This document shows, in pieces, positions 321-26,413 of a stretch of 64,000 bases of DNA. The notes under the pieces are model-generated. The model did not search any database. It was not told the DNA's origin and saw nothing but the letters and a program-made list of their open reading frames with translations. Made by a program: the position numbers and the translations under genes. Position 1 is the stretch's first letter, and each line of letters opens with the position of its first letter. The DNA comes from Anaerolineae bacterium (lineage in GTDB: Bacteria; Chloroflexota; Anaerolineae; B4-G1; SLSP01), in assembly GCA_049975525.1 (NCBI GenBank), contig JBNGCW010000006.1:68702-132701 (forward strand), given 5' to 3'.

Positions 321-3300
321 TTGAAGAGAAGTAAAAGATTCCATTGGTTTAATCTTGTAATTCTCGCGCTGGCGATAGCGCTGGCACTTGTCGCGGCTGC
401 GCCGCTCTGGGGACCGGGCATCGTCAACACGCGGGGCGGCGGCGACAGTCCCTTCCTCCTGCGGCGCACGCTAGAGATGGCGGAGAGCCTGCGCCACGGG
501 ATCTTCCCCGTCCGCTGGATGAGCCACGCAGCCTACGATCTGGGCTATCCGTTCTTCAACCACTACGCGGCGCTGCCCTACTACCTCAGCGGCGGGCTGA
601 CGGCGCTGGGTCTCTCGCCACCGGTCGCCATTCAGGCGACGCAGACGCTGGGCTTTATGCTGGCGGCGCTGACCATGCTGTTCTGGTTCCGGCGGCTTTT
701 CCAAAATCGCGTGGCGGCGCTGCTGGCGACGGCGGCCTATACCTTCGCGCCCTTTCACCTGGTCAACGTCTACGTGCGGGGCGATTCACTTTCCGAGTTC
801 TACGCTTTCGTCTGGTATCCGCTGATTCTGTGGGCGCTGGATCGGCTGGCAGCGCGCTTCACGACCCGGCGCGTGCTCGGCGCGGCGCTGGCTTACAGCG
901 CGCTGATCCTCACGCACAACGTCTCCGCTCTCATCTTCTCCCCCTTCGCCTTTCTCTATGCCCTTGTCGTGACCTGGGATCGAGCAAAGACGTCTCGCCG
1001 GCATCCGGCATCCGCCCTCGACTTTCACGTTTCACGCATCGTCCTTCCTTTTGCCCTCGGCATCTTGCTCAGCGCCTGGTTCTGGCTGCCCGCCATTGCG
1101 GAGATACGCTACGGGCAGATGGGGCCGGCGTTCACCGAGGGTTACTTCAACTACGAGAACCACTTTCGCAGCACGAACCTGGTGCAGCGCTCGTTGCGTT
1201 TCAATTATGAGATCGCGGGTCGCGTCGACGAGGCCGGGCCTTTCGCCATGGGGCTGGCGCAGGCGGGGCTGGCGCTGATAGGAAGTGTTCTTCTATCGTG
1301 GCGGGTTTTACGGCAGGCCAGAAGGCAGAGGTCAGGAGTCGAACGTAAATCCAAAATCCTCGCCCGTGAAGTCTACCTGTTGATCGGGCTTGCGCTGGCG
1401 ACGGTGATGATCACGCCCCTCTCGCGGCCGCTCTGGCGGTATCTTCCGTTGCTGGCGACGACACAGTTCCCCTGGCGCTTTCTCTCCGTCCAGGCGCTCT
1501 TCACCGCCGCCGTCAGCGGCGCGTTGGCAGACCGGAGTGGGGGCCGCCCGATCCACGTTTCAACGCTCATCGGCCTGCTTTGTACCGCCGCGCTCATTCT
1601 CTCCGCGCTGCTCTCCCTACACCCCGACCGCCTGCGCATCACGGCGGAGGACGTGACCTGGGACAACCTGCTGCTCTACGAGTCTTTCACCGGCAACATC
1701 GGCACGACCATCCGGCATGAGTATCTGCCGGCGGACGTGGTCCCGCGCCTTTACATCTCCGGGGCGGTGGTGGACGGTGTGAACAGCATGATGCCGAAGG
1801 TCGACGGTAACGCCCGGCTGCTCGCCACGCTGACGCGCCGCACGCCGGTGCAGCAGGTCTGGCGCGTGACGCTGGACCGCGCGGCGACGGTCGCCTTCCC
1901 GCTGCATTGGTGGCCCGGCTGGCAAGCGCGCATTGACGGCGAGCGCGCCGACGCCCGCCCGCTAACCGGCTCGGGGCGCCTGGCGGTGGACATGCCCGCC
2001 GGCCCGCACGTCGTGACGTTGCGCCTGCGGAATACGCCGCTGCGTACGGCCGCGTTGCTCGTCTCCGCCGCCACGCTGCTGGGCTGTGCCATCTGGCTGC
2101 TCTCCTCCGCTCCCGCTTTGTCATTTTATCCTTTGTCCTTTGTTATTTTATCCCTTGTCATTTCCATCATCCTATGTGCACTCTTTCAACAGCCCCCCAC
2201 CGCCGGGCCCGCGACGTTCTTCGACTTCGTCCAGATGCCCTATCCGCACCGGGGGCCGGTGGACTTCGGCGCGGCGCAGTTGACGACGGTGCGCGCGCCT
2301 GATACCGCTGTGCCCGGGGAGACGCTCAACATTGAGCTGGCATGGGCTGACGTGACGGCGCCGCTGACGGGCACGCTGCGCCTGGTCTCCCCGGCGACGC
2401 CGCGCCACAACGTCCCACTGACGCTGGCGGAGACGTCCTTCGCCGTGAAGGCGGTGCAGACGGCAAGGCTGGCGCTGCCGGGGGATCTGGCGCGCGGCCT
2501 CTATCTGCTGCAACTGCGCGTCCACGACGATGCCGAGGAGCGCTTTGGACAGACGGCGCAGGGGCGGGGGATGGGAGCGTTTTACATCGGGGCGGTGCGC
2601 GTGCCGGGAGGGCCGCCGCTGCCGGCGGACGCGCCGCAGGTCGCGGCGCTGGGCGACGGTGCGCTGACGCTGCACGCCGTCGAGGCCCACCAGGTGGACC
2701 CCCGCACGCTGGCTCTCGCCTTCACCTGGTCGACGAGGGGGACGCCGCGCAACTGGAGTCTTTCGCTGCGCCTGCGCGATGCGACGGGCCGGCAGCTGGT
2801 GCAGATGGATCTGCAGCCGGGCTACGGGTATCTGCCCACGACGCTCTGGACGCCCGGCGAGCAGGTGGTGGATCATCTGCGGATGCCGCTGCCGGAAGGG
2901 CTGGCGCCGGGCGCTTACACGCTTTCCGTGATCACTTATCTGCAGGCGACGATGCAGGAAGGCGGCGAGGTGGACGTGCCCGTTCGGCTGACGGATGCCA
3001 CGCGGCGGGAGCCGCCCGACACGGCGATCTGTGAGGCCGGTGGTCTGCGTCTCACCGAGGTGCGGCTACCCGACGCGGTAGACGAGGGTGAAGCGCTGAC
3101 GTTCGACGCGGTCTGGAGCGCGGTTGAGGTGCCGGAGGTGGCGCTGACGGCGCGCTGGGAGGTGTTGAACGGGCTGGGGAAGGTGGTCGCCTCGCAGGAG
3201 GGAGCGGTGGCGCCCGGATCAGAGACGTCGCTCTGGCCGAAACACGCCTGGGTGCGCGCGCCGGTGCGATTGGAGATGCCGCCGTCGTTGCCCCATTCCC

Positions 3301-3815
3301 CTTATCGTCTGCAGTTGACGTTGCTGGCGGAGGGGAAAGCCCCGGTGACCTGTTCTGTGGTCGAGGGGCTGCCCATCGTCGCCCGCGAGCGCGTCTTCGA
3401 GCCGCCCCCTTTGCCCTTCGCCCAGGAAGCGTTCTTTGGCGAGGTTTTGCGGCTTTTGGGATACGACCTTGTGTCCCAAAAAAATGAAATCCGCCTGACG
3501 CTTTGGTGGCAGGCTGTGCAGACTCCCGCTCGGGACTATAAGCGCTTTGTCCATCTCTACGATGTGGACAGTGGGGTTGTGTTGGCGCAGGACGATGCTA
3601 TGCCGCGCGATTGGACGTATCCCACCGGTGCCTGGGTCGCCGGGGAGGTGGTCAGTGAGACGGTGACGCTGACGACGGAGGGGATTCCGCCCGGCGAGTA
3701 TCGGCTGGGCGTGGGCTGGTACGAAGCAGAGACGGGTACCCGGCTGCCCGCTTTCGATAGTCAGGGTGAGCGGATTCCTGAAGATCGGGTGATGTTGGCA
3801 TGGGGTCCTTATTAA
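321..3815 (+). CDS. Large polytopic membrane protein, GT-C-fold-like putative glycosyltransferase. N-terminal multi-TM domain and about 800 aa of extracytoplasmic repeated beta-rich domains.
   Basis: 1164-aa ORF with a TTG start. The N-terminus holds many hydrophobic helices (MKRSKRFHWFNLVILALAIALALV..., FPVRWMSHAAYDLGYPFFNHYAALPYYL) typical of GT-C/PMT/ArnT-like transferases. The C-terminal part contains three related repeats (LTLAETSFAVKAV..., WSLSLRLRDATGRQLV..., LTLWWQAVQTPARDYKRF...). The exact family is not resolved. Confidence 0.7.
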   Translation: MKRSKRFHWFNLVILALAIALALVAAAPLWGPGIVNTRGGGDSPFLLRRTLEMAESLRHGIFPVRWMSHAAYDLGYPFFNHYAALPYYLSGGLTALGLSPPVAIQATQTLGFMLAALTMLFWFRRLFQNRVAALLATAAYTFAPFHLVNVYVRGDSLSEFYAFVWYPLILWALDRLAARFTTRRVLGAALAYSALILTHNVSALIFSPFAFLYALVVTWDRAKTSRRHPASALDFHVSRIVLPFALGILLSAWFWLPAIAEIRYGQMGPAFTEGYFNYENHFRSTNLVQRSLRFNYEIAGRVDEAGPFAMGLAQAGLALIGSVLLSWRVLRQARRQRSGVERKSKILAREVYLLIGLALATVMITPLSRPLWRYLPLLATTQFPWRFLSVQALFTAAVSGALADRSGGRPIHVSTLIGLLCTAALILSALLSLHPDRLRITAEDVTWDNLLLYESFTGNIGTTIRHEYLPADVVPRLYISGAVVDGVNSMMPKVDGNARLLATLTRRTPVQQVWRVTLDRAATVAFPLHWWPGWQARIDGERADARPLTGSGRLAVDMPAGPHVVTLRLRNTPLRTAALLVSAATLLGCAIWLLSSAPALSFYPLSFVILSLVISIILCALFQQPPTAGPATFFDFVQMPYPHRGPVDFGAAQLTTVRAPDTAVPGETLNIELAWADVTAPLTGTLRLVSPATPRHNVPLTLAETSFAVKAVQTARLALPGDLARGLYLLQLRVHDDAEERFGQTAQGRGMGAFYIGAVRVPGGPPLPADAPQVAALGDGALTLHAVEAHQVDPRTLALAFTWSTRGTPRNWSLSLRLRDATGRQLVQMDLQPGYGYLPTTLWTPGEQVVDHLRMPLPEGLAPGAYTLSVITYLQATMQEGGEVDVPVRLTDATRREPPDTAICEAGGLRLTEVRLPDAVDEGEALTFDAVWSAVEVPEVALTARWEVLNGLGKVVASQEGAVAPGSETSLWPKHAWVRAPVRLEMPPSLPHSPYRLQLTLLAEGKAPVTCSVVEGLPIVARERVFEPPPLPFAQEAFFGEVLRLLGYDLVSQKNEIRLTLWWQAVQTPARDYKRFVHLYDVDSGVVLAQDDAMPRDWTYPTGAWVAGEVVSETVTLTTEGIPPGEYRLGVGWYEAETGTRLPAFDSQGERIPEDRVMLAWGPY
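2101..2170 (+). repeat. AT-rich imperfect tandem repeat (TTTGTCATTTTATCC-like units) embedded in the high-GC ORF; it encodes a TM helix
   Basis: ctttgtcattttatcctttgtcctttgttattttatcccttgtcatttcc is read directly from the sequence and translates to ALSFYPLSFVILSLVISIIL. Confidence 0.5.
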
Positions 3816-3818
3816 GTG

Positions 3819-3846
3819 TTGTATCTTGTTTTAAATCCGTTATAAT
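3819..3846 (+). promoter_or_regulatory. Sigma70-like promoter (TTGTAT-N16-TATAAT) upstream of degV-like gene with a roughly 200-nt leader
   Basis: ttgtat (3819-3824), 16-nt spacer, tataat (3841-3846) in an AT-rich intergenic stretch right after the stop of the 321..3815 gene. Confidence 0.4.
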
Positions 3847-4049
3847 GAGCGATGTTTATTGCCGGCAGGTTGGAGGGTGCGTGATGTTGCTATTATTTTC
3901 CGTTGCTGTATTTTCCATGGCAGAGAATGTCAGTGGTGGCAAGGGGCTGTGGGGGCCGGGGGCTGTGGAGGGCCGGACCTGCAGCAGAACTCAACATCGA
4001 GGTTATCCCCTCCCCTGCGGTGTCGATTTATCTAGGCAAGGGAGGTATC

Positions 4050-4883
4050 ATGATTCACCTGGTGACGGATACGACGGCGTATTTGCCTGAGCAGTTGGAG
4101 AGGCGTTGGCAGATTCAGAAGGTACCGCTGAAAATTAACGTCGATTATGAGGCGGTGGACGAGGATAAAATCGCGCCGGAGGTTTTTTACCGACGGTTGG
4201 CCAGGGTGGAGACGGCACCCAGTACCAGTCAGCCGGCGCCGGGCGAGTTTATGACGCTTTACGAAGCGCTGACACGCAACGGTGATGAGGTGCTTTCGGT
4301 TCACATCTCTGAGGGGTTGAGCGGCACGCCGCTGGTGGCGCAGATGGCGGCCCGCGAGGTGGCACCGGATCGGATCACGGTGGTCGATTCCCAGGCGACG
4401 ACGTGCGCGCTGGCCCTGATGGTTGAGGCGGCTGCGCAGGCGTTGGCAAACGGCGCCTCGCGTGCCGAAGCCGCCGCCGTGGTTGAGGGTATTCGGGCAC
4501 GTTTCGGTAGTGCGTTTCTGGTGGAGGATCTGGAGTATCTGCGCAAGGGAGGGCGGATCAACGGCGCGGCCAAGTTTCTGGGCGCGATGCTCAACGTGCG
4601 GCCCATTCTCTATCTGAAGGAGGGGAAGATCGAGCCACTGGGCTTGGCCCGCACGCGCAAGCGGGGCCTCCGCCAGCTGGTGCAAGAGGTGCGGAAGCAG
4701 GTGGGCGAGGGGCCTGTCCGCGCGGCGGTGACGCACATCCAGTGCCCCGAGGAGGCCCAGGCGCTGGCGGAGCAGGCCCGTGCGCAGTTGAACTGTGTGG
4801 AGCTTTTTATCAATGAGACCGGGCCGGTGATCGGGTCGCACGTGGGGCCGGGCTTCATCGGATTGGCTGCGTATCCGGTATAG
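4050..4883 (+). CDS. DegV family (EDD-fold) fatty-acid-binding protein
   Basis: MIHLVTDTTAYLPEQ... has typical DegV N-terminal and internal motifs. RBS GGGAGGT lies 5 nt upstream of the ATG at 4050. The ORF-track start at 3903 lacks an RBS. Confidence 0.8.
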   Translation: MIHLVTDTTAYLPEQLERRWQIQKVPLKINVDYEAVDEDKIAPEVFYRRLARVETAPSTSQPAPGEFMTLYEALTRNGDEVLSVHISEGLSGTPLVAQMAAREVAPDRITVVDSQATTCALALMVEAAAQALANGASRAEAAAVVEGIRARFGSAFLVEDLEYLRKGGRINGAAKFLGAMLNVRPILYLKEGKIEPLGLARTRKRGLRQLVQEVRKQVGEGPVRAAVTHIQCPEEAQALAEQARAQLNCVELFINETGPVIGSHVGPGFIGLAAYPV

Positions 4884-4982
4884 GTGTCACCTTCCCGGAG
4901 GAGAGCCAACCTTCTTCCAAAGTGATAGGTGGCCGGTTTTCCCAGAAGGTTGGCTTTTAAGTTGCGAGTGCAAAGAGGTGTT

Positions 4983-5537
4983 ATGAGCGAGAATAACAGG
5001 CCGTTGGCGATTGTGTTCGGCAGTTCGCGGACGAAAGACAACGGGCATCTGAACGACGCGGAGTGCTTGGGTCGCTTGTTGGTCGAAGCGGGCTACGATG
5101 TGGGCAGCGGCGGTTACAGCGCTGTGATGGATCGCGTGAGCAAGGGTGCCCACGAGGCCGGAGGGTACGTCGTGGGCTACACGACGGACCAGTTTCCTGA
5201 CGCTGTGCCGTCGCGGTGGCTGACTGAGGAGCGTCGCACGCCCGACGTGCTGCTCCGCATCCGGCGTATGTTGCAGGAAGGCGATGCCTTTATCGCTCTT
5301 TGGGGTGGTATCGGCACGTTGACGGAGGTGGTCGTCACCTGGAGTATGGGGCAGGTACTGGCCGACACCGGTGGGCGCGTCAAGCCGCTGCTGTTGGTGG
5401 GTGCGCACTGGCCCCCGCTGGTCAGGTGTATCGGCGAGCAGACGGAGATCGGCGACGGGGTGCTGGCCTATCCGCAGCTCTGTGCTACGGTGGAAGAGGC
5501 CGTGGTCAGGTTGCGCGACCTTCGAGAAGAGGAGTAG
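4983..5537 (+). CDS. LOG family protein (TIGR00730 Rossmann-fold nucleotide-binding, cytokinin riboside 5'-monophosphate phosphoribohydrolase-like)
   Basis: MSENNRPLAIVFGSSR...GSGGYSAVMDRVSKGAHEAGGYVVGY...ALWGGIGTLTEV matches the LOG signature (PGGxGTxxE-like). The start is chosen at the internal ATG 4983. Confidence 0.75.
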   Translation: MSENNRPLAIVFGSSRTKDNGHLNDAECLGRLLVEAGYDVGSGGYSAVMDRVSKGAHEAGGYVVGYTTDQFPDAVPSRWLTEERRTPDVLLRIRRMLQEGDAFIALWGGIGTLTEVVVTWSMGQVLADTGGRVKPLLLVGAHWPPLVRCIGEQTEIGDGVLAYPQLCATVEEAVVRLRDLREEE

Positions 5538-5541
5538 CGCC

Positions 5542-6867
5542 ATGCCCAATGCGACGTATCACTTTCCGCCGGATTTCAAATGGGGCGTGGCGACGGCCTC
5601 GCATCAGGTCGAAGGGAACAACGAGAACAATCAATGGTGGGCCTGGGAGCAGCAGGAGGGGCGTATCAAGCAGGGACACACTTCGGGCCTGGCCTGCGAC
5701 TGGTGGGAGAACGCCGAGGCGGATTTTGATCGCGCCGCCGATATGGGTCTGAACGCGCTGCGGCTTTCTATCGAGTGGAGTCGGGTGGAGCCGGAGCCGG
5801 GGGCCTTCGACAACGCGGCGTTGGAGCGTTACCGTGAGATGCTCCAGGGGCTGCGAGCGCGTGGCATCGAGCCTATGGTGACGCTACATCATTTTTCCAA
5901 TCCGCTCTGGCTGGAGCAGCAGGGTGGTTGGGAGAACGTGGGCACCATCGCTTATTTCACCCGTTACGTGGAGCGAGTGGTGCGCGCGCTGAGCGAGGAG
6001 ACGCGGCTCTGGTGCACCGTCAACGAGCCCAATGTCTACGCCACCATGGGCTATCTCACAGGGCTCTTCCCGCCCGGCCAGCGAAGCCTCAAGGCCACGC
6101 GGACGGTGCTCCGTAACCTGCTCAGGGCGCACGGCGCAGCCTATCGCGCCATCCATCGCATCCAGCCGGCGGCGAAGGTGGGGCTGGCGCACAACCTGCG
6201 CATTTTCGACCCCGCCAATCCCCGCTCGCTCCTGGATGGGCTGGTGGCGCGCATTCAGGACCTGGGGTACAACCGGAGCACGCTCAGCGCGGTGTGGAAA
6301 GGGTGGTGGGCGCTGCCCATCGGCTTTGGACCGGCCTTCAAGTTGCGCCGCACGTTGGATTGGATCGGCTTAAATTACTACACGCGCGACCTGGTCGCTT
6401 TTGACAGCGGCGCCCATGAGATGCTCTTCGGGCGCGCCACGCACGCCGGCGACGCCGAGATGTTGGACGGCGGCTACGGCGAGCTCTATCCCGAAGGTAT
6501 GGCCCGCGCGCTGAGGCGCCTGGGAAAGCTGGGCCTCCCCATCTACGTCACCGAGAACGGCATTCCCGACAGCGACGACGACCAGCGTCCCCGCGCACTG
6601 CTGCTCCATCTGCATCAGATGTGGCGCGTCATGCAAGAGAATCTACCGCTGCAGGGTTACTATCACTGGACGCTGGTGGACAACTTCGAGTGGGCGGAGG
6701 GCTGGACGCTGCGCTTCGGCCTGATTGCCCTGGATCCGGAGACGCAGGAGCGCATGCGGCGGCCCAGCGCCGACCTCTACGCTGCGATTGCGCGGGGAGG
6801 CGCCATCACGCCGGAGCTGATCGACACTTACGCACCGGAAGCCCGTCCTCTGCTGTTGCCGGAGTGA
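5542..6867 (+). CDS. bglA: GH1 family beta-glucosidase
   Basis: MPNATYHFPPDFKWGVATASHQVEGNN...TVNEPN...ITENGIPD are classic GH1 motifs, including both catalytic Glu contexts (NEP, ENG). RBS GAGGAG sits upstream of the ATG at 5542. Confidence 0.88.
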   Translation: MPNATYHFPPDFKWGVATASHQVEGNNENNQWWAWEQQEGRIKQGHTSGLACDWWENAEADFDRAADMGLNALRLSIEWSRVEPEPGAFDNAALERYREMLQGLRARGIEPMVTLHHFSNPLWLEQQGGWENVGTIAYFTRYVERVVRALSEETRLWCTVNEPNVYATMGYLTGLFPPGQRSLKATRTVLRNLLRAHGAAYRAIHRIQPAAKVGLAHNLRIFDPANPRSLLDGLVARIQDLGYNRSTLSAVWKGWWALPIGFGPAFKLRRTLDWIGLNYYTRDLVAFDSGAHEMLFGRATHAGDAEMLDGGYGELYPEGMARALRRLGKLGLPIYVTENGIPDSDDDQRPRALLLHLHQMWRVMQENLPLQGYYHWTLVDNFEWAEGWTLRFGLIALDPETQERMRRPSADLYAAIARGGAITPELIDTYAPEARPLLLPE

Positions 6868-6873
6868 CGCCAG

Positions 6874-7935
6874 ATGAAGACATCGGCCCTTGACTACGAC
6901 CTGCCTGAAGAGCTGATCGCGCAGGTGGGCGTGGAGCCGCGCGACGCCTCGCGCCTGCTGGTTATCTACCGCGAGACGGGCGAACTGGAGCACCGTATCT
7001 TCCGCGAGATCGGCGACTATCTGCGTCCCGGTGATCTGCTCGTCGCCAACGAGAGCCGCGTGATCCCCGCGCGCCTCTTCGCCCGCAAAGTCCCCACCGG
7101 GGGCAGAGTGGAGATCCTGCTGTTGCGTCGGATTGAGGAGGGACGCTGGCGCGGGCTGATGGGCGGCGCGCGGACGCGTGTCGGCACCCGTGTGCGCCTC
7201 TTCAAGGGGGACGAGCCCACGGAGATCGAAGCCGAGGTAGTCGAAGTGGGCGGGCGCGGCGAGCGCGTGCTGGCCTTCTCCGAGCCGTTGGCGCCGCATC
7301 TGGACGACCTGGGTGCAGTTCCCCTGCCGCCGTACATCCATGAAGAGCTGAAGGATCCGGAGCGCTACCAGACGGTCTACGCGCAGACGCCGGGCAGCGC
7401 CGCCGCGCCGACGGCGGGCCTGCACTTTACACCGGCGTTGATGCTGGAGCTGCGCGAAGCCGGCGTCAAGTTCGCCTTCGTCACGCTCCACGTGGGATTG
7501 GACACCTTCCGCCCTATCGAAGAGGAGACCGTCGAGGGGCATGAGATTCACAGCGAGTGGGCGCGTCTCTCGCCCCACGTCGCCGAGCAGATCAACCAGA
7601 CCAAGGTGAGGGGTGGACGCGTCATCGCCGTGGGGACGACGAGCATGCGTGTGCTGGAGACGGCGGCGCGCAGCGGGCTTTTTCAATCGGAGACGGAGAG
7701 CTGTCCCTGGCGCGCCGTCGCGCCCTACGAGGGCTTCACCGACCTCTATATCACGCCGGGTTTTGAGTTTCGCGTGGTGGACGCGCTGATCACCAACTTC
7801 CACCTGCCCCGCAGTTCACTGCTGGCGTTGGTGATGGCCTTCGCGGGGGTGGATCTCGTCCGCAAAGCCTACGTGACGGCGATAGAAAAACGCTATCGCT
7901 TCTACTCGCTGGGCGACGCCTGTTTGTTCCTCTGA
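6874..7935 (+). CDS. queA: S-adenosylmethionine:tRNA ribosyltransferase-isomerase (queuosine biosynthesis)
   Basis: MKTSALDYDLPEELIAQ...RDASRLLV...VANESRVIPARL...[15 protein letters not shown] is QueA signature sequence throughout. Confidence 0.9.
   Translation: MKTSALDYDLPEELIAQVGVEPRDASRLLVIYRETGELEHRIFREIGDYLRPGDLLVANESRVIPARLFARKVPTGGRVEILLLRRIEEGRWRGLMGGARTRVGTRVRLFKGDEPTEIEAEVVEVGGRGERVLAFSEPLAPHLDDLGAVPLPPYIHEELKDPERYQTVYAQTPGSAAAPTAGLHFTPALMLELREAGVKFAFVTLHVGLDTFRPIEEETVEGHEIHSEWARLSPHVAEQINQTKVRGGRVIAVGTTSMRVLETAARSGLFQSETESCPWRAVAPYEGFTDLYITPGFEFRVVDALITNFHLPRSSLLALVMAFAGVDLVRKAYVTAIEKRYRFYSLGDACLFL
7776..7935 (+). repeat. Direct repeat copy 1 (3' end of queA); it is duplicated at 9695..9854
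   Basis: About 160 bp with about 96% identity to 9695..9854, read directly from the sequence. Confidence 0.85.
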
Positions 7936-7990
7936 GGCGCTTATCCAGTATCCGGCAACCGGATTTCGTCCCTTACTTCTCTCCTATTGC

Positions 7991-8018
7991 TTGACCCCCG
8001 ATCATTGGGGTAAAATAT
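7991..8018 (+). promoter_or_regulatory. Promoter-like element (TTGACC ... TAAAAT) in the AT-rich region upstream of the cassette gene
   Basis: ttgacc at 7991-7996, taaaat at 8011-8016 (short 14-nt spacer; alternative -10 candidates nearby). Strong RBS AGGAG at 8047-8051. Confidence 0.3.
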
Positions 8019-8059
8019 AGGTTAGAACATAATCGGGCGCACAATAAGGAGTCAGGAGC

Positions 8060-9655
8060 ATGCAAGAAAACATATGGATACGGTTTACTGCTGTGGTGCT
8101 TCTACTGGGCATCATGGTGATTGCCTTGTTCATTGCTACGTCTGTATGGAGCCGACCGCTGTCCGCATCCGCGTGGCACGTTGCCCCTCCGCTGAAGGGG
8201 CCGGTGGATCATCGGCCGGCGCCGGTTATCGTTACGCCCCAGGCTCAGCTGCAGTCCGGCGGCTTGAAAGCCATCGCCATCGTAGGTGAGGTCGGAGATG
8301 TCACTCAGCTTTACAAAGACGACATGCAGTACGCGGTAGACGCACTGGAGGATCATGGCGTTACGGTTTATAAGTTTTTCTACGGCGATAGCGCTTTCAC
8401 TTGGAGCGATATTGTCGCAGCAGCCAATGGCGCACATTTTCTCCTCTACATGGGGCACGGCGTTTACTGGGGCGACTCGTGCGTCAATCCAACGGAGGTC
8501 GGTGGTTTCTATCTAGGTAGCGAGTTCGTCTCTCCGGATCAGATCCGCAATGATCTTGGCGGAAAATTAGCCGAGGACAGCGTGGCAATTCTCAGCCACG
8601 CTTGCTTTTCGGCAGGCGATTCAGCCTGCGATCCCGAGGGCACATTGACGCAAGTGGAGGCCGAGCGCCGGGTGCGGATGTACGCTGCGCCCTTTGTGGA
8701 TATCGGCATGGAGGCTTATTACGCCAACAACAACTATTATTCTGCCAGCAATATTGTCAACCAGCTGTTAACGGATCCCAGCCAACGAAAGAGCGTGGGG
8801 GAGATTTTCAAGAGCATCTCCCCCTTCAGCGCCGGCGAGTTCCGCGATCTGACCTATCCCGACAGCGGCTATGATCTGTGGCTGAGTGGGAGCACAGGTC
8901 ACTGGAGCGATGCCTTTGTCGGTATGCCCGGCTATGTCTTCGCCGGTGATCTTACGACGCCCCCAGAATTGGGTGGGTTGCCGGAGACGTTGGCTTTTGC
9001 GTTCAATCAAGCCACCAGCGTTCTTTCACCCGACTCTTACACTGTGACCCCCGAAAACGTCGGCAATAGCGATCCCCTCACCTGGACCATCACTACCGGC
9101 TGTGCCTGGCTCGACTTTTCGCCGGAAACGGCGACGACACCGGAACCGTTTGGGGTGATGCCCAATCAGGCTGCGATTGCGGCATTGCCCGAAGGCCAGC
9201 ACACCGGCACGTTCACCGTGACAGTCACCGACCCGGCGGAGACGCTCAACGCCGTCCAGCGGGTCGAGGTGACGCTGGATATCGTGAGGCCACGGCTGGG
9301 AAACCTTCCGGCGGAGCTCAATTTCACCTATCTTATTTCTGACGCGCTGATGCTGCCGCGCTCCCACGTCGTGACACCGCGCAACGTCGGCTCGGAAGAT
9401 GTGTTGACGTGGGATCTTGAGCAGGCGGGCACCTGGTTCGAGACGTCGGTCACCAGCGGCACGACGCCCGGCGTCTTCACCATCACGCCCATCAGCTACT
9501 CCACGACCCAGTCGATGAGCTATACGGGCTGTGTTACCGTGACGGCGACGGCGCCGATAGGGACGGACGACGCCGTCCAGCGCATCGATCTCACCCTGCA
9601 GGTCCGGGTGGCCGAAGCGGCGCGTGTATTCTTGCCCCTGGTGACCCGAAACTGA
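8060..9655 (+). CDS. Membrane-anchored secreted protein with a putative clan-CD (legumain/gingipain/caspase-like) cysteine peptidase domain and two tandem C-terminal beta-sandwich-like repeats
   Basis: N-terminal TM ([24 protein letters not shown]). KAIAIVGE strand, then FLLYMGHG (His) and, 49 aa later, [14 protein letters not shown] (Cys). The spacing and context match the clan CD His-Cys dyad. Two repeats follow ([17 protein letters not shown]... and [17 protein letters not shown]...). The region is AT-richer than its surroundings. Confidence 0.5.
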
Positions 9656-9694
9656 GGATTGGGCCTCTCCGCAGCATAAAGCAACGTGCGGGGC

Positions 9695-9854
9695 GGTGGA
9701 CGCGCTGATCACCAACTTCCACCTGCCCCGCAGTTCACTGCTGGCGCTGGTGATGGCCTTCGCGGGGGTGGCTCTCGTTCGCAAAGCCTATGCGACGGCG
9801 ATAGAAAAACGCTATCGCTTCTACTCGCTGGGCGACGCCTGTTTGTTCCTCTGA
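9695..9854 (+). pseudogene. Duplicated 3' fragment of queA (direct repeat copy 2); a gene remnant with no start
   Basis: It would encode ...[52 protein letters not shown], near-identical to the QueA C-terminus, with a few substitutions and no upstream start. Confidence 0.8.
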
Positions 9855-18606: not shown

Positions 18607-20133
18607 TCAGTGGCACCACCTCAGAAGACGCAGTCCCTCCAGGCGCAGGAGCGCAGGGAAGAGCGCGCGGTAAATGGCACAATAGGGGGAGGGGCCGGGC
18701 CTGGCCTGGACTGAGCGTGCCAGGAGTGGGCAGCCACCGGCACACCAGTAGCGCCAGGGGCACGTGTGGCATTGCAGCTTATCGTCCACGGGGACGTTTT
18801 GGAAGTTGGCATCAGCCGCCCGGATGGCATCGAGGGGGTCGTCGTTCTTGACGGTGCTCACGGTGTCATCCATGCGCATCTGGCAGCGGGACACGTTGCC
18901 CTGGGGGCCAATGACCAGGTAGCTGCGTCCGGCACCGCAGGGGTAGGCGTGGGGGCTGCTGAACAGGCTGCGATCCAGCAACCCATCGATAAAGCGCTCT
19001 CTGGGTAGATTTGCTTCGATGGTAGAGAGGGCGTTTTGCAACCCTGCGATCCAGCGCTGTTGGGCGTGGGGCTCTGCCAGGCGTGATATGCGCTCAGGAT
19101 CGCGCACAAAGTTGAGATTGAAGCGCAGATCGCGTTCCAGCGCAAAGGCGACTACCTCGCCGAGGTGATCGATGTTATGCTCGGTCACGGTGATGGAGAG
19201 ATAGGGAGCGAGGCCACGGTCTAACGCCCGATCGATAGTGCCGGCGACCTGTGCAAAGGAGCCCCGTCCATCGCTGAAAGGGCGTTGGGCATCGTGCGGC
19301 GCACCGACGCCGTCCAGCGAGATCATCAAGCGCACGTTTTGGTCCTGCAGCCAGGCGATCATGGCGTCGGTGAGACGGGTGCCGTTGGAGAGGAGGGTGG
19401 CGTGCAGTCCCAGACCACGGTGGTCCGTCAACGTCCGCGCATAAGCGTGCAGCGTGCTCACCAGGGGCCAGCGCAGTGTCGGCTCCCCGCCGGCGTACTT
19501 GAGTTTGACAGCCCGGAAGCCGTGCGCCTCGGCGGATCGAACGACGGCCTTGATGGCAGCGCGACCGGTGGCGACGTCCATCTCGCGTCCACGCTTGCGG
19601 ACGTAACAGTAGGGACAGCGGAGATTGCAGGCGTCGGTCACGTGCAGCCAGACGGTGAGGAGTTGCGGAGGCGCGTGCAAATGCTCGCCGGGTCCGCAGT
19701 CTGAGCTCAGCAGGCCCAGGGCGGCGAATTGCTCATCGGTTTCCGTCTTCAGGGGTCGGGGCTCCGTAAAGTGCGCGAACCGCTGCTGCGCGGCTGCGTT
19801 GAGCACCGCCACGGTGGCAGCGCCCTGGGTGTTGAAGAGTAGCGTATGGCCCTCCGGGAGCGGCGCTCGGTAGAGTGATGGGGGGATCTGCCAGAGAGCG
19901 TTGGTGCACGAGGGGGGTAGGCCCAGGGCAATCACCTCTGGGGCGCAGGCGCAGTCAGAGGCGGCTGTAGAATCCTTTAGCCAAATTCCACAGAACGATA
20001 GCGTCTCTGGGTACGCGCAGTCAGATTCGTTGTTCTCACCCAGGAGAGACCAAAAGAGCCGGGGGCGTTGCTTATTAAGCAAGGGTTTGTTCCCCCAATC
20101 GTAAACTACAAATCGTGTATCATCACCATCCAC
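18607..20133 (-). CDS. Radical SAM/SPASM-domain enzyme with an N-terminal roughly 150-aa extension containing a PqqD/RRE-like segment; a putative peptide-modifying maturase
   Basis: CNLRCPYCYV (CxxxCxxC), and C-terminal Cys clusters (CQMRM...CHTCPWRYWCAGGCP...YCAIY) typical of SPASM. The N-terminal HTLLFNTQGAATVAVLNAAAQQRF resembles the RRE/PqqD strand-helix. The start codon is uncertain, and the 5' end overlaps the GNAT gene by 28 nt. Confidence 0.75.
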   Translation of the reverse strand: MDGDDTRFVVYDWGNKPLLNKQRPRLFWSLLGENNESDCAYPETLSFCGIWLKDSTAASDCACAPEVIALGLPPSCTNALWQIPPSLYRAPLPEGHTLLFNTQGAATVAVLNAAAQQRFAHFTEPRPLKTETDEQFAALGLLSSDCGPGEHLHAPPQLLTVWLHVTDACNLRCPYCYVRKRGREMDVATGRAAIKAVVRSAEAHGFRAVKLKYAGGEPTLRWPLVSTLHAYARTLTDHRGLGLHATLLSNGTRLTDAMIAWLQDQNVRLMISLDGVGAPHDAQRPFSDGRGSFAQVAGTIDRALDRGLAPYLSITVTEHNIDHLGEVVAFALERDLRFNLNFVRDPERISRLAEPHAQQRWIAGLQNALSTIEANLPRERFIDGLLDRSLFSSPHAYPCGAGRSYLVIGPQGNVSRCQMRMDDTVSTVKNDDPLDAIRAADANFQNVPVDDKLQCHTCPWRYWCAGGCPLLARSVQARPGPSPYCAIYRALFPALLRLEGLRLLRWCH

Positions 20134-20603: not shown

Positions 20604-23600
20604 TTATGTCAAAGAAACGTTACCCAGTTGCCTGGAGGCGAGCATCGTGTAGTGTTCATAAGACCCGAAAGTGTTTTCGAGCTCACGCCACAAGCGATTC
20701 TCCTCGGCTATAGTTGCCCATTCCCGGGCCATGTCACGGATAGTATTAAAGGCGGCAACCATCTCCTGCACATTCAACCCTTTCAGGCGTCTATGAATAG
20801 TGTTGAGCGCTCTGCGAATGCCCTGATATTCCTTACCCACCAATTCATTATATTCCATCGCCAGTACAAACTCTCGAATAGCTGTACAAAGGTTGGGATA
20901 GGGGGCTTCTTTTGTTCCTGCATCGAAGCTATCCATGGCCATCACGCCCCGCAAGACGTGTAATCGCCCCAATTGACTGAAGATGTCGATGAGAGTATCA
21001 TCGTTGATCTCCGGCTTCCGCTCTTTAGTGAGGAAATAGTCTCCAAAATTTCGCCTGGTTTCTTCCCCAAGTATTTCAAGGAAAGTCTCCGTATCCTCCC
21101 ACTCTTGTTCCGCGGCTCTCTCCGGTTGCTCTCTTTGCAGATAGTAGTACGTCCAGGCCAGACCCAGTGAAGCATCTAGATATTTCTGCCAGAGGTTTTC
21201 CTCTATAGCGATCTTCCTTGAGGCTTCCAGATTTTGAATCGCTGCTTTGGCGTGTTCTAAAGCGTGATCCTCTTCAGACAGAATAAGTTGCCGGTGGGTC
21301 AAGCCCTGTTCGTAAAGGGCAACCATGCGCCGCTCCGGTTCTCCATCTTTGAAGTGCTTCAATGCTTCTTTGGCTTCTTCTAAGGATTGCTGTAAAAGCC
21401 TAGGTCTCTCTCGCGCCGGTGTCTCTGGATCCTCACTCAAGAAGCGATGTAATCGACTTAGCGTCAGAAGAGATAGCCCTATGCCTCGCTTGAAATTCAG
21501 CGTTTGGGAAATCTCCAGAGATCTGGCTGCGTAGGGCTCTGCTTCACGGTAACGTCCTGCCTGGACTTCGACAGCAGCCCGCGTATTGTAGGTCAACGCT
21601 AATGGCAGGCGCGTGCCCAGCTTCTTACGCAGATTTAACGCATCTTTTACTTGATGACGGGCTACCTCGAATTCCCCGCTTAGCGCCAATGCGTATGCCA
21701 GATTTGTCAGCGTGTTCGCCTGCTCCGCTTCCAGTTTGGTAAGTCGCCAGTGCGGTAAGGCGTCTTGATAGGCTTCTGAGGCTGCGATAAATTGTCCCTG
21801 CACCCGGCGTAAATAGCCCAGATTGTTGTAGTTCCGTGCCAAAAGGGCGCTCCAGCGGATGAATTGGGAAGCGGGAACATCATATTCTTTTAGCTGCTTA
21901 TTGGCTGTGAGTAGAATATCTCCTGCCCGTTCGAGATCGTTTTGTTCGCTGTCTCCGCGGTAAATGCGAACCAATGCCTCCCATGTATTCAGTTCTGCTT
22001 CCGCCAGAACGCCACCATCAGCGACTAAGTCGCGTCCTCCATCGCGTAGCATCTGTACAATGCGCCAGGCTTCATCGAGGTTTTGTCGCTCGACGTACCG
22101 TTTTACCCACCGGATGGCCGCATCAGCCTCAAGATCGGCGCGTCTCAAGCCGTCGGCGATGATCTCCTGCTTGCCAGATGGATCCTGTTCGGCTACAAAA
22201 GTCAGGAGCTCGGCCCGCAATTGCATATCCAGATTCTCGTCGTGGGTGGCAATGGCCTCTTCTGCATAAAGGAAGTATGTCTGAAAACCCGCAGAGGGAT
22301 TCCAGCGCAGGCGATAATGCAGGTCTTCCACCAAAGCGTCTTCGAGGTACGCGCGAGCCTCCGCAACCTTTAAGGTATCAGGCAGTTCTTTTTCCAGGGC
22401 AGGATAGAGACCCGCGATGGCCTCCCGCGCCTCTTGGATGCGTTGCTTATAATAAGCCCGGATCTCCCGATAAACGCGCTCCCGCTCTTTATCTGCAATA
22501 TCTTTCAAGGCATGTTGGAACAACAAGTCGTACATCTCATCGTGCAGAAAGAGCCAGTCATCCTCAGGGCGGCGCTTGACGAAGGAGAGATCGCGGATCT
22601 GCTCCAGAGCATCTTCGACTTCTTCGAGCGTCAGGTCGGCAACGCGAGCCAGCAAAGCCGGTGGGCCACCTTTACGTAACCAGCCCAGTGCGATGATCAC
22701 CTCGTCGCCCGGACGGCGGTTCTCGCGCAGGGCCTGCACGAGACGCCTCCCTAGCTCGTCCCGTATCTCTTCTCGTCGATGGGTGGAGTATTGACGGGCT
22801 TCGTCCAGGGTGCTGCCAAAGGCTTCCAGCGGCCTGCCATCGATCACCAGGTGATCGATGGCGAGGGCCAACCAGATGGGCGGAATGGTCGGTGGATCTC
22901 CTCCATCGTGCAGACAATGAAAAATAGCGCGCCGTCTCTCTTGACCGAGGTGTTGAATGGCTTCTGCTGTCCTACGATCATGGGGGTTGTCGCTGTCCTG
23001 TGCAGCGGCAATAACGGCATCGAAATACGCTCGCGCTGCTTTTTCCTTCAAGCCTGATAGCTTCAAGGGTAGTATCTCCTGCCGTTCACTCAGACGGGCT
23101 TTCAATGTGGTGGCTAGATCCGGTTGATAAGGGCGTCCCGATAAGATCAGCACGACGTTTTGCACCTGTGGTAGGAACGTATTCAGCAACCACTTCAGTA
23201 CGTCGGGTTGCTCTTCCGTGATATGCAGATCGGCGGCGGCCAAATCCTCTTGTTGAAAAAGCTTCTCCACGGTGTCCAGCACCAACACCACACGCTGTTG
23301 ATCGGTAAGATTCTTTAGATCAGCGAAGAAAGCTTTTTGCAAGGCTTGGCGTTCGGCGGAAGGTATGGGTTCACCACGAGTGTAACGCTCACGAAGCTCT
23401 CGCCGCTTTTCTTGATAGCGCTCAAACTCAGTCGGTAAGACCGCCTGAATGCGTTCCATCAGCCCTGCAGCAGTACGCGCCGAGGTATGGTAAAGATCAA
23501 TGATGTCTGAGGCGACCAGCGGCTTGATCTCGAGTTGAGGGACATGTTCCAACACGTGTTGGACCAGGCGCGTTTTGCCGATACCTCCGGGGCCGGTGAT

Positions 23601-23720
23601 ATAGATGACGTAAGCGTTTGCGGTGTCAAGAATTGCTTGGTTGATCTGCAATACTTCTTTCTCACGTCCTACCAACTCAGGCGTGGCACGAACGCTCTCA
23701 TAGGTCTCGCGGTATGTCAT
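20604..23720 (-). CDS. STAND-type (AAA_16-like) P-loop NTPase with long C-terminal TPR repeat region (1038 aa)
   Basis: ELVGREKEVLQINQAILD...YVIYITGPGGIGKTRL (Walker A) and VVLVLDTVEKL (Walker B). The C-terminal half has multiple TPR-like repeats (LGYLRRVQGQFIAASEAYQDAL..., LTNLAYALALSGEFEVARHQ...). The region is about 50% GC versus about 67% in the flanks. RBS GGAGGG is upstream. Confidence 0.8.
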   Translation of the reverse strand: MTYRETYESVRATPELVGREKEVLQINQAILDTANAYVIYITGPGGIGKTRLVQHVLEHVPQLEIKPLVASDIIDLYHTSARTAAGLMERIQAVLPTEFERYQEKRRELRERYTRGEPIPSAERQALQKAFFADLKNLTDQQRVVLVLDTVEKLFQQEDLAAADLHITEEQPDVLKWLLNTFLPQVQNVVLILSGRPYQPDLATTLKARLSERQEILPLKLSGLKEKAARAYFDAVIAAAQDSDNPHDRRTAEAIQHLGQERRRAIFHCLHDGGDPPTIPPIWLALAIDHLVIDGRPLEAFGSTLDEARQYSTHRREEIRDELGRRLVQALRENRRPGDEVIIALGWLRKGGPPALLARVADLTLEEVEDALEQIRDLSFVKRRPEDDWLFLHDEMYDLLFQHALKDIADKERERVYREIRAYYKQRIQEAREAIAGLYPALEKELPDTLKVAEARAYLEDALVEDLHYRLRWNPSAGFQTYFLYAEEAIATHDENLDMQLRAELLTFVAEQDPSGKQEIIADGLRRADLEADAAIRWVKRYVERQNLDEAWRIVQMLRDGGRDLVADGGVLAEAELNTWEALVRIYRGDSEQNDLERAGDILLTANKQLKEYDVPASQFIRWSALLARNYNNLGYLRRVQGQFIAASEAYQDALPHWRLTKLEAEQANTLTNLAYALALSGEFEVARHQVKDALNLRKKLGTRLPLALTYNTRAAVEVQAGRYREAEPYAARSLEISQTLNFKRGIGLSLLTLSRLHRFLSEDPETPARERPRLLQQSLEEAKEALKHFKDGEPERRMVALYEQGLTHRQLILSEEDHALEHAKAAIQNLEASRKIAIEENLWQKYLDASLGLAWTYYYLQREQPERAAEQEWEDTETFLEILGEETRRNFGDYFLTKERKPEINDDTLIDIFSQLGRLHVLRGVMAMDSFDAGTKEAPYPNLCTAIREFVLAMEYNELVGKEYQGIRRALNTIHRRLKGLNVQEMVAAFNTIRDMAREWATIAEENRLWRELENTFGSYEHYTMLASRQLGNVSLT

Positions 23721-23735
23721 GATTTCCCTCCACTC

Positions 23736-24914
23736 TCAAGACAGTGCCATCACAGATGTGCAATCTGCTTCACGGTGTTGCAGCTGCTGCTGGTGATATT
23801 GATACGCTTTCTGCCAGTGTTCTTGGGTGCGCTTATATTTTTGGGCCCATCCCTGGTATAGATTGGCTGCCGCACATTGCAGGCGTTCCCAGGTGGCTGG
23901 TCTGTTGTTTCTCATGTACTGCTCAACCAGCTGGCGGACAGGTTCGTCCAGCGCGTATGCGCTTTCTTCGGAGTCCCAGCGTGCGAAACCTGTCTCGACC
24001 AACGCTTCGCGGACCTGACGCGCTTGTGCGTGGGACCAGTGATGATATTGGGAATTGTTGTGGTAGGCGGCTAACATGACCGGGATCCGCGCCTCATCGA
24101 AGACCTGCAGGACGCACAGAGCCTCAAGGTACTCGCGTACGCTCTGCCGTCGGCCTGGATCCTTGATGCTCTTCAACATCTCGTGGATGACTTGGCCGAG
24201 GGCTTCTCCTGGATCCTCGTGTTCGGCTAAGAGGTAAGTTGCCAGGGGATTCCCTTTGCTGATCTTATAGATCTCCTGTGCGCGTGAGACGGCTCGTTTG
24301 CGTTGTCGCTTCAATTGTTCGTGCGTCGCGGACTTGGAGAACGGCTCTAAATCGACAAATTCTGCATCAAACCTCAGTTCCGGCGTGGTAAAGGGATATG
24401 GACGTCCACGTCCTGCCAGGACAATCAGCGTTTGCGGTTCAACGGCCAGGGGGCCCAAGACGTACTCTTCCAGTGCGTCCAGCAGATCCCAACCGGCTTC
24501 GTAGACGTGATCAACCAGCAATACCAATACCCGGGCATTCAGTTGCTTGGTCACCTGTGCCAAAAAGCGCCGGCTCATCTCGGAAGGTTCATCGGTCTGC
24601 AGTTTGAGATTCAAGGTTTTTGCCAGGTGCTGCAGAATGTCGGTGACGGCGATCAAGGGATTCCAGTCCTCGTATGCCGTGAGATCCAGCCCACAAGGGA
24701 TGACCCCCCGCATACTGTCGAGTACCGTCTGCAGGTGTTTGAGCAGCCACGTTTTGCCGGTCCCTCGTTCTCCCAGGAAGATCACCGTCCGCTTAGGGAC
24801 CGATTTACCCTCAGCCAGACGGTGGGCTCTATCGATAACCTCCTCGATTTTATCTTCTCGGTCCACGAAGAGTTCCTTTTTGTATTCAAGTAGGGTAATT
24901 TCTTTGTTATTCAT
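23736..24914 (-). CDS. AAA_16/STAND-like P-loop NTPase (about 390 aa)
   Basis: FVDREDKIEEVIDRAHRL...VIFLGERGTGKTWLLKHL (Walker A) and VLVLLVDHV (Walker B). The start is chosen at the second ATG (MNNKEI) preceded by a purine-rich RBS. A 15-nt gap separates it from the downstream gene. Confidence 0.7.
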   Translation of the reverse strand: MNNKEITLLEYKKELFVDREDKIEEVIDRAHRLAEGKSVPKRTVIFLGERGTGKTWLLKHLQTVLDSMRGVIPCGLDLTAYEDWNPLIAVTDILQHLAKTLNLKLQTDEPSEMSRRFLAQVTKQLNARVLVLLVDHVYEAGWDLLDALEEYVLGPLAVEPQTLIVLAGRGRPYPFTTPELRFDAEFVDLEPFSKSATHEQLKRQRKRAVSRAQEIYKISKGNPLATYLLAEHEDPGEALGQVIHEMLKSIKDPGRRQSVREYLEALCVLQVFDEARIPVMLAAYHNNSQYHHWSHAQARQVREALVETGFARWDSEESAYALDEPVRQLVEQYMRNNRPATWERLQCAAANLYQGWAQKYKRTQEHWQKAYQYHQQQLQHREADCTSVMALS

Positions 24915-24965
24915 CTCGATTCTCCCTTCCATACAAAGCGGCGAGCGAACGCGGTTGGCGGCGTC

Positions 24966-26189
24966 TCACTCGCCTTGGTATGCGGGTGTTCCCCCTCGGT
25001 TGTGTTGATAGCGTTCTATAGCTTGCTCGATGTCCTTTTCTTCCAAATAGCCCTCACGGCCCGCGCGTCGCAAGTGAAACTGCAACATATCGCGGGTCAG
25101 CACAAGCATCTCGCGCGGCAGGGGCTCAACAGCTTCGGCTAACAGCGTCTCCACGTCGCGCAGTCCCGGGGACGCGATGGCATCCAGACTGCCAAAGGCT
25201 CCCTCACTGGCTACGTAGACGCGACGGCGAACGACCTCGCTCAACAGCGCCGGTGACCACGTCAGAAAAGCACAGCGCTGCGCAGCAAAGGCTTCGGGAC
25301 ATCGCTGCTGTAAGGTTCGATGCGTCGCCAGCGGGAGAAAGCCCTTGACGTAGATGCCTTGCTCCGCCCACGTGAAGAGGTGAGGTATCCAGGGGTCCAG
25401 AACGGCGACGACGTTATCGGCGTCCAGATACGTCTCCGGGACAGCGTCCAGACCATCCAGCAGGATGTACAAAGAGCGCACGTGTAGGGTGTCCAACAGC
25501 GCTGCAAGCAAAGCCTCCCAGCGGGTCGCTGCACTCTCAGGCCTGTCCTCCGCAGAGGGCGTCGCTTCTATTGCCCGGCACCACTCACGCAACGTATCGG
25601 GTTTTGGCGGGTCGGGCAAGGCGAAGGCCGGCCCCAGGTTCAACGCTCTCCGCACCTGCGTTAAACTGCCCGTTTCCCGGCAGAGCTCAACATATGTGGA
25701 CAGCGGTCCCGGCAGATTCCACGCCAACGCTCTGCGGAGTACACGCCGGTCTTCACCTTGCAGGTTCATGAACCAGTGAGGGCGATAGGCCAGCGTCATG
25801 AGTAGGGCGCGAGCGCCAGCACGTCCCAATGCCAGGAGATGGTCGTCCCACGAAGGCGGCAGCCGCTCCCAGCGTAAATAAGGAGGATTATACGGGATGG
25901 GAAAGGGGCGGTTGGGTGCCTGTCCAACCCAACAGGCGCGTGTGGTACGGACGCGCATAGCCGTCTTACCTCCGCCGGCCGGTGCGAAAAGCCAGGCAAT
26001 CCAGTCGCCCCAGACGTGCGCAAACTGCTCGTGCCCGACGAGGTATTGACTCAAATGGGGATCTTCAGCCGCATTGAGGACGGCAAACGGATCAAAACGC
26101 AGTCCCCGATCGCGCAGCCAGTGCCACAGGGATGCCTCGTCTGCTCGCAATGTAGCCTGGGTAGTGCTTGATAAAGATGACATCTTCAT
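24966..26189 (-). CDS. P-loop NTPase (407 aa), family unresolved
   Basis: WLFAPAGGGKTA (Walker A) and LYILLDGLDAVPE (Walker B-like). There are no other recognisable domains. Confidence 0.6.
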   Translation of the reverse strand: MKMSSLSSTTQATLRADEASLWHWLRDRGLRFDPFAVLNAAEDPHLSQYLVGHEQFAHVWGDWIAWLFAPAGGGKTAMRVRTTRACWVGQAPNRPFPIPYNPPYLRWERLPPSWDDHLLALGRAGARALLMTLAYRPHWFMNLQGEDRRVLRRALAWNLPGPLSTYVELCRETGSLTQVRRALNLGPAFALPDPPKPDTLREWCRAIEATPSAEDRPESAATRWEALLAALLDTLHVRSLYILLDGLDAVPETYLDADNVVAVLDPWIPHLFTWAEQGIYVKGFLPLATHRTLQQRCPEAFAAQRCAFLTWSPALLSEVVRRRVYVASEGAFGSLDAIASPGLRDVETLLAEAVEPLPREMLVLTRDMLQFHLRRAGREGYLEEKDIEQAIERYQHNRGGTPAYQGE

Positions 26190-26413
26190 CTAAGCGGTTT
26201 GATCATACGTTCACTAGGCCATCTGACTATATCAAAACTCGCTTCTAAGGTGTGCAAATGCAACGGGCAAACCCCACAGCTTGAGGACTACCTCAATCAG
26301 GTTAACAAACATTATATGTCAAACACAAGAAGATACTTTTATCATAACGGGTATTTGCTCACTGCTATGCCACAATTCTCTAACTTAGATGTCACGTATA
26401 TCTCACGACAATC

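Follow-up and report, generated by a model that had tools for sequence, protein, structure and literature searches.

A divergent, predicted secreted cysteine peptidase of the caspase/gingipain type (clan CD) encoded next to queA in an Anaerolineae bacterium

In gingipain R of the cysteine peptidase family C25 (PF01364; RgpB, PDB code 1CVR) the catalytic His and Cys follow consecutive parallel β-strands, and the catalytic domain is succeeded by one or more immunoglobulin-like (Ig-like) domains and a C-terminal sorting signal. Both properties are also predicted for the product of gene X, an open reading frame (ORF) in a 64,000-nt stretch of DNA from an Anaerolineae bacterium (contig JBNGCW010000006.1), which as a whole is denoted the window in the following. 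With a probability that we put at roughly three in four, X encodes a secreted, probably surface-associated cysteine endopeptidase of the caspase/gingipain type (clan CD), is part of a large family that lacks annotation and stands nearest to C25, and is an old neighbour of queA. The gene starts with ATG behind a good ribosome-binding site, and a "hypothetical protein" from a metagenome-assembled genome (MAG) of the Anaerolineae has the same sequence as its product (100% identity). A word-indexed search yielded 88 homologues, nearly all of them from metagenome bins of Anaerolineae and other Chloroflexota.

The caspase core consists of a six-stranded β-sheet of the order 2-1-3-4-5-6 with an antiparallel strand β6 and of five helices; a small three-stranded sheet is located between β3 and α3, and the His/Cys dyad resides on the loops after β3 and β4 (McLuskey and Mottram, PMC4357240). 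The product of X was modelled by AlphaFold2 using the family alignment, at full length (predicted local distance difference test, pLDDT, of 92.9) as well as for residues 40–300 alone (pLDDT 95.0, predicted template modelling score 0.93). In the model, strand β1 (70–75), helix α1 (79–98), β2 (102–107), α2 (115–121) and β3 (127–131) lead up to a GHG triplet. Short strands that probably form a small β-sheet lie between residues 135 and 157 and are followed by α3 (159–166) and β4 (175–178), after which comes the sequence SHAC. A helix (198–214), β5 (219–223), two helices (228–236 and 246–252), β6 (261–265) and a hairpin (272–288) complete the domain. This linear order, which refers to the succession of elements along the chain and not to the order of strands in the sheet, is that of the caspase layout apart from one extra helix between β4 and β5. 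The model of X resembles the caspases, metacaspases and orthocaspases (C14, PF00656) also with respect to the probable small sheet between β3 and α3 and the position of the predicted dyad on the loops after β3 and β4. The arrangement that defines clan CD, a His at the C-terminal end of β3 followed by Gly and a Cys at the end of β4, is found in the model as Gly132-His133-Gly134 and Ser-His-Ala-Cys182.

An earlier note, made from the DNA letters, had proposed a clan CD-like peptidase domain in a secreted protein, and this proposal is supported by the conservation, the predicted topology, the fold matches and the transitive links to C25, C14, CHAT and C50 described below. The strings on which it was based were quoted exactly, with KAIAIVGE at residues 70–77, FLLYMGHG at 127–134 and the stretch around the Cys at 175–188, and the spacing of 49 residues between His133 and Cys182 is correct.

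Conservation of the presumed dyad was analyzed in an alignment of 78 sequences of the X family (A1). Tyr130, Gly132, Gly134 and Gly186 are invariant, while His133 and Cys182 are each present in 77 sequences. The sole exception, P0043 (540 aa), has lost both dyad residues, the His being replaced by Gln (GQG for GHG) and the Cys by Pro (TPF for ACF), and is probably a pseudo-enzyme. A joint loss of His and Cys is expected of two residues that work together. The signature Y-x-G-H-G...C-x-x-A-G is kept in relatives down to 26–30% identity, and Cys182, Gly134 and Gly186 are invariant in an alignment of 47 distant relatives at 26–39% identity. As judged from these alignments, the signature is conserved far beyond chance.

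Two further cysteines are located at equal distances from the dyad residues, namely Cys141 eight residues after His133 and Cys190 eight residues after Cys182. Both occur in 52 of the 78 sequences and both are missing in the other 26, whereas not a single sequence contains only one of them. This perfect covariation implies that the loop after His and the loop after Cys touch each other, and it is the only evidence of their proximity that does not depend on the model. Probably Cys141 and Cys190 form a disulfide bond tying both loops together, which would fit an exported protein.

The relationship to known families was followed with a domain profile of 16 sequences (A4), for which 1.84 billion proteins, each standing for a cluster at 50% identity, served as the database. 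It matches 994 cluster representatives at E ≤ 1e-3, of which 182 reach E ≤ 1e-30. Most of the more distant matches (E about 1e-33 to 1e-38) stand alone and are secreted, with lengths of ~260–300 aa; those with a named source stem from Bacteroidia/Flavobacteriales MAGs and are all called "hypothetical". Compared with Pfam, 47 distant members match Peptidase_C25 in 11 cases (best E = 8.7e-6), Peptidase_C14 in four, CHAT in three and Peptidase_C50 in one, and the most frequent families among them are all of the caspase/gingipain type of clan CD. Two proteins, P0222 (23.6 bits) and P0223 (23.1 bits), pass the gathering score of 23 for PF01364, and the X-family profile reaches both at E about 2e-34. 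A homologue search with P0222 returned only unannotated proteins. Furthermore, the family Cys falls on PF01364 profile position ~271 in four independent matches (P0196, P0207, P0220 and P0227) and the family His on position ~244 in two matches, so that the register with C25 is consistent. A statistically supported sequence link to clan CD is therefore obtained, albeit only transitively via P0222, P0223 and the distant members. The Pfam matches of these members in combination with the consistent register indicate, at the level of sequence, that the domain of X is homologous to the clan CD peptidases, with C25 as the nearest family, and too divergent for direct recognition.

Several results weigh against this assignment. 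X itself matches no peptidase model of Pfam or NCBIfam even at E ≤ 10. Searches of the PDB sequences by phmmer with X and with the profiles A1, A4 and A5 did not retrieve any clan CD chain, and hhalign comparisons of the family profile with single, unverified sequences of human caspase-3 and legumain were not significant. The extra helix 198–214, which is not part of the caspase layout of PMC4357240, takes the place of the cleavable linker of caspases. Six family members show weak matches to the NCBIfam flavodoxin model FldA (E about 0.01). Finally, the fold matches of the isolated domain as obtained by Foldseek are weak (best E = 1.5e-3, TM 0.3–0.46), and those to caspases are interleaved with flavodoxin-like proteins such as MdaB, NQO1/2 and WrbA.

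The domain-only model had been calculated because the Foldseek results of the full-length model were swamped by Ig-like domains. Among these, RgpB (1CVR, 4IEF) is found at E = 5.6e-7 over 380 columns, an alignment that spans the catalytic as well as the Ig-like parts of X. For the isolated domain the list of PDB matches (TM 0.33–0.41) is headed by Dronc, gingipain R as the second-best match and caspase-11, -4 and -1; further entries are a legumain-type ligase and DdvA, an anti-sigma factor with a CHAT domain. Against viral structures, seven of the top eight matches are caspases or metacaspases. Taken alone, the comparison of the domain with the PDB is suggestive, not decisive.

The interleaved matches raise the alternative that the N-terminal domain is flavodoxin-like or otherwise Rossmann-like and serves a non-proteolytic purpose such as binding or redox chemistry, the likeness in His and Cys being convergent. 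MdaB, NQO1/2, WrbA and flavodoxins do appear at E-values similar to those of the caspases, the FldA matches point in the same direction, and fusions with thioredoxin domains exist. Nevertheless, we consider this highly improbable: the commonest Pfam matches of the distant members all belong to clan CD, with two proteins above the C25 cut-off; the family Cys and His recur at the same C25 profile positions in independent matches; in X they are positioned exactly after strands 3 and 4, and in one member they are lost together; the top matches in the viral library are almost all caspases; and the protein is presumably exported, while no flavin-binding family is matched significantly.

Within clan CD, the X family differs from each of the described families. 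X lacks a PF01364 match, which is found for one of the 78 close homologues (E = 1.3e-3), and its relatives cover only profile positions ~146–351 of 374. Its catalytic domain is a single unit of ~230 aa, whereas the gingipain catalytic unit is larger and consists of two subdomains. The C-x-x-A-G motif around the Cys, the probable L3–L4 disulfide and the duplicated Ig-like domains, presumably of BACON_2 type, further distinguish X from C25, as does its Chloroflexota host. In contrast to the C14 peptidases, X has no PF00656 match, and four distant relatives remain below the threshold, the best C14 score of any relative being 18.5 bits compared to a cut-off of 21.4. Moreover, X is predicted to be extracellular and to possess a signal peptide, and nothing points to dimerisation or to specificity for Asp. 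The CHAT proteases (PF12770) and separase (C50) share with X the clan and sub-threshold matches by distant members, and DdvA is among the fold matches. Their scores, however, are far below the cut-offs, and X is predicted to be secreted, whereas CHAT proteases and separase are cytoplasmic or regulatory.

At its N-terminus, X had been described as membrane-anchored. This is at variance with the N-termini of the homologues, which look like typical cleavable Sec signal peptides composed of a basic n-region, a hydrophobic core and an A-x-A-type site a few residues ahead of a conserved APP[IL]RxP motif. X contains A36-S37-A38/W39 at the same place, followed by H-V-A-P-P-L-K-G-P, and a signal peptide that is cut off is therefore preferred to a membrane anchor. 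In the AlphaFold2 model, the N-terminus comprises a helix (3–27) and a low-confidence stretch (28–36). If X is retained at the cell surface at all, this is more likely due to the C-terminal YLP-box than to the N-terminus. The motif at the predicted mature N-terminus (residues 42–51) is modelled with a pLDDT of about 92. A linker of variable sequence lies between this motif and the catalytic domain, and the motif may serve as a latency plug or as a site of autoprocessing.

The two tandem C-terminal repeats reported earlier are real, with 37% identity to each other (BLASTP E = 3e-22), but their length is about 107–110 aa and not ~90 aa. The region homologous to residues 301–517 of X matches BACON_2 (PF19190) in 58 of the 78 homologues (best E = 1.2e-12) and BACON (PF13004) in 10, and the repeats of X are modelled as β-sandwiches. 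In contrast, the repeats of X itself remain below HMMER detection and do not match PF19190. BACON domains are usually reported from Bacteroidota and crAss-like phages, whereas those of the X family belong to Chloroflexota and are attached to a predicted peptidase.

Unlike gingipains and PorU, X ends in a 10-residue YLP-box and does not match any family of type IX C-terminal domains in Pfam or NCBIfam. Of the two NCBIfam models of the YLP-box/ultrashort_CTERM type, the end of X passes NF053834 with 12.1 bits (cut-off 10) but fails NF050076 with 12.4 bits (cut-off 15). A YLP-box is found at the C-terminus of 66 of the 78 family members, and within the window X is the only protein that carries one. 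NCBIfam labels the motif "putative" and names no sorting enzyme for it, and a literature search for the YLP-box found no publication.

Clan CD includes transamidases and ligases, and PorU, a C25-family sortase of type IX secretion, carries a sorting signal that PorU itself processes. X might likewise be a transpeptidase or sorting enzyme akin to PorU or to the GPI8/legumain-type transamidases, which processes YLP-box proteins instead of degrading proteins. C25 as the nearest Pfam family, the frequency of the box in a family while no enzyme is named for it, and the stand-alone position of the gene in conserved housekeeping neighbourhoods would agree with such a function. Carrying a YLP-box, however, marks X as a substrate, and its box is the only one in 64 kb; furthermore, the stand-alone proteins of Bacteroidia (~270 aa) contain the domain without a YLP-box, and fusions to dockerin, PKD, PA14 and S8 subtilase are typical of degradative exo-enzymes. 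A sorting function of X therefore appears quite unlikely. Equally based on analogy with PorU, and on the syntenic stability of the stand-alone gene in the chromosome, is the narrower idea that the Anaerolineae branch of the family provides the missing processing enzyme for the ultrashort YLP-box signal of Chloroflexota; we regard it as very unlikely, yet if it were true, clan CD would gain a new "sortase" system, one that acts on an ultrashort signal at the C-terminus.

Other proteins combine the catalytic domain with an S8 subtilase and a fervidolysin-type prodomain, with dockerin, with PA14 and thioredoxin, or with LysM (P0012, P0047, P0085, P0091, P0093, P0098; P0079–P0084; P0112, P0163; P0187), and fusions with PKD are found as well. 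The partners dockerin, PKD, PA14, LysM and S8 subtilase are extracellular themes. Unexpectedly, P0197 contains the catalytic domain together with an N6 DNA methylase and a Type ISP specificity domain, perhaps because separate genes were merged in gene calling.

For X as a secreted clan CD endopeptidase, the following sequence of events can be envisaged. The precursor would be exported via Sec and its signal peptide cut near A38/W39, as suggested by its own sequence and by the homologues. The α/β domain of 230 aa would then present the dyad of His133 and Cys182 in a catalytically competent geometry and hydrolyse peptide bonds, with the catalytic loops braced by the Cys141–Cys190 disulfide that the covariation points to. 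The two BACON_2-type Ig-like domains, assigned by homology and by the model, may act as a spacer or a ligand-binding stalk. The YLP-box, a motif match whose function is putative even in NCBIfam, might direct sorting or retention. The likely role of X is extracellular protein degradation or processing.

With respect to the genomic surroundings, X had been regarded as cargo in a mobile-looking context. The observation behind this is correct, since the last 160 nt of queA, which directly precedes X, are found a second time downstream of X as an orphan fragment (Table 1). Further upstream of the 160 nt, the two copies show no homology. The junction between X and the queA fragment is present in independent Joint Genome Institute (JGI) assemblies (L008 and L009), and the repeat is therefore not an assembly artefact. 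The five differences between the copies, when compared with the related genome L001, do not reveal a clear polarity (3 vs 2).

L001 is collinear with positions 2249–9692 of the window at ~81% nucleotide identity, which includes a GH1 gene, queA, the intergenic region before X, X itself and the first 37 nt after its stop codon. At the protein level, X is 69% and QueA 88% identical. In L001 no queA fragment is found downstream of X; the collinearity ends within 2 nt of the repeat start and different genes follow. The guanine plus cytosine (GC) content of X is 0.59 as compared to 0.65–0.66 in the flanks, and at third codon positions (GC3) it is 0.70 as compared to 0.79–0.86 in the adjacent genes. 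The same GC3 offset exists in L001 (6001–7599) and thus predates the divergence of the two genomes.

These data bear on the possibility that X is the cargo of a 1.9-kb integrative element which inserted at the 3′ end of queA and restored this gene, the 160-nt repeats being attL and attR. Repeats of 97% identity indeed bracket a single gene, the upstream copy completes queA, X is lower in GC than its flanks, and the junction occurs in independent assemblies. We nevertheless judge this explanation improbable. GH1, queA and X are arranged alike in L001, at ~81% nucleotide identity and without the downstream queA fragment; the end of synteny at the repeat start marks a breakpoint and not the end of an element; the low GC3, being common to L001, is old; and the other homologues have neighbours different from queA. 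The flanks examined contain no annotated integrase or transposase, the window contains no tRNA genes, and PHROGs and PADLOC are matched neither by X nor by the 116-aa ORF beside it. Thus, repeats at the 3′ end of a gene, as expected of an integrative element, are found, whereas a mobility gene in the flanks examined and, in the comparison with L001, a presence/absence polymorphism with clean ends are not. A search of metagenome contigs for the junction between the queA stop codon and the downstream sequence, i.e. for an empty site, gave no matches although JGI contigs containing it exist, and is thus uninformative.

Other X homologues sit singly among housekeeping genes, and a search for related loci with the X protein yielded nine, all in Chloroflexota and none next to queA. 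In summary, the comparison with L001 indicates that X is not recently acquired mobile cargo but has stood beside queA in the chromosome for a long time. As for the orphan queA fragment, it looks most simply like a scar of illegitimate recombination and not like an att site. In such an illegitimate event, a piece ending 39 nt after X would have become linked to nucleotide 903 of queA in another copy of the locus, possibly by homology-facilitated illegitimate recombination with DNA of a close relative. In tblastn the queA fragment seemed to reach into the 3′ end of X, but this turned out to be spurious. Readings of the locus as a defence system or as part of a phage were rejected on account of the lack of PADLOC and PHROGs matches for X and its neighbours, and scans for promoters and terminators revealed nothing convincing.

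Table 1. Features of gene X and of the adjoining queA locus. Positions refer to the window, residues to the X precursor.
Feature	Residues	Position	Strand	Basis
queA, intact, 353 aa, immediately upstream of X		6874..7935	+	ORF; 88% identical to L001 protein annotated PF02547
Direct repeat copy 1, terminal 160 nt of queA down to the stop codon		7776..7935	+	sequence comparison
Shine-Dalgarno-like AAGGAG		8046..8051	+	8 nt before the X ATG; read from sequence
Gene X, predicted precursor (531 aa) of a secreted cysteine peptidase of clan CD type		8060..9655	+	ORF, homologues, AlphaFold2 model
Sec signal peptide, probably cleavable (R8, residues 9-30 hydrophobic, A36-S37-A38/W39)	1-38	8060..8173	+	model helix, homologue N-termini; cleavage site by inference
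Motif [AS]-[PG]-[PA]-[IL]-[RK]-x-P-[DE]-x-Y at predicted mature N-terminus	42-51	8183..8212	+	R/K46 in 65/78, P48 in 72/78
Catalytic alpha/beta domain (caspase/gingipain-like)	69-296	8264..8947	+	AlphaFold2 domain model, Foldseek, profile search, Pfam links
His133 codon (Y-M-G-H-G), predicted catalytic His directly after β3 (127-131)	133	8456..8458	+	conservation, model position
Cys141 (8480-8482) and Cys190 (8627-8629), probable disulfide between the loop after His and the loop after Cys	141, 190	8480..8629	+	co-occurrence; bond itself by inference
Cys182 codon (S-H-A-C-F-S-A-G), predicted nucleophile after β4 (175-178)	182	8603..8605	+	conservation, model position, PF01364 register
Ig-like repeat 1 (presumably BACON_2-type)	301-410	8960..9289	+	β-sandwich in AlphaFold2 model, homology to repeat 2
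Ig-like repeat 2 (presumably BACON_2-type)	411-517	9290..9610	+	β-sandwich in AlphaFold2 model, homology to repeat 1
C-terminal YLP-box, putative sorting motif (F-L-P-L-V-T-R-N)	522-531	9623..9652	+	NCBIfam models
Direct repeat copy 2, orphan queA 3′ fragment, called as 52-aa ORF		9695..9854	+	97% identical to copy 1

At related loci, the sequence just upstream of P0020/P0030, a homologue of X, varies between genomes (about 4935–6000 in L004, L005 and L007 as compared to 5863–6000 in L012). Some genomes contain ~930 extra bp with an 84-aa ORF at this place, while the downstream neighbours are constant. In L006, a HepT/Polbeta toxin-antitoxin pair replaces the usual upstream neighbours. Elsewhere in the window, a block of low GC content (0.51–0.55 versus about 0.65 elsewhere) extends over positions 20604–29910 on the minus strand and may be a genomic island. 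It encodes a STAND-type NTPase of 1037 aa (AAA_16 and TPR_12, NACHT-like), a second AAA_16 protein, a Trans_reg_C protein and two large ORFs without a Pfam match, and is flanked by a radical SAM gene (18607–20133) and a NYN-domain gene (29991–31535).

Very probably, X adds a new and divergent member, so far unannotated, to an enzyme class that is well understood, a finding that overturns nothing. The family to which it belongs comprises at least 994 clusters at 50% identity, and its domain is missed by Pfam and NCBIfam. Its members occur in Anaerolineae and further Chloroflexota; the few that are named also include proteins of Bacteroidia/Flavobacteriales MAGs and of one Kiritimatiellae MAG, and every named member encountered is labelled "hypothetical protein". 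The family would add a compact catalytic domain of ~230 aa, presumably braced by a disulfide, to the caspase/gingipain clan, and it offers a well-defined carrier of the YLP-box for studying protein sorting in Chloroflexota. Its recognition as clan CD and C25-like would improve the annotation of extracellular proteolysis in Anaerolineae.

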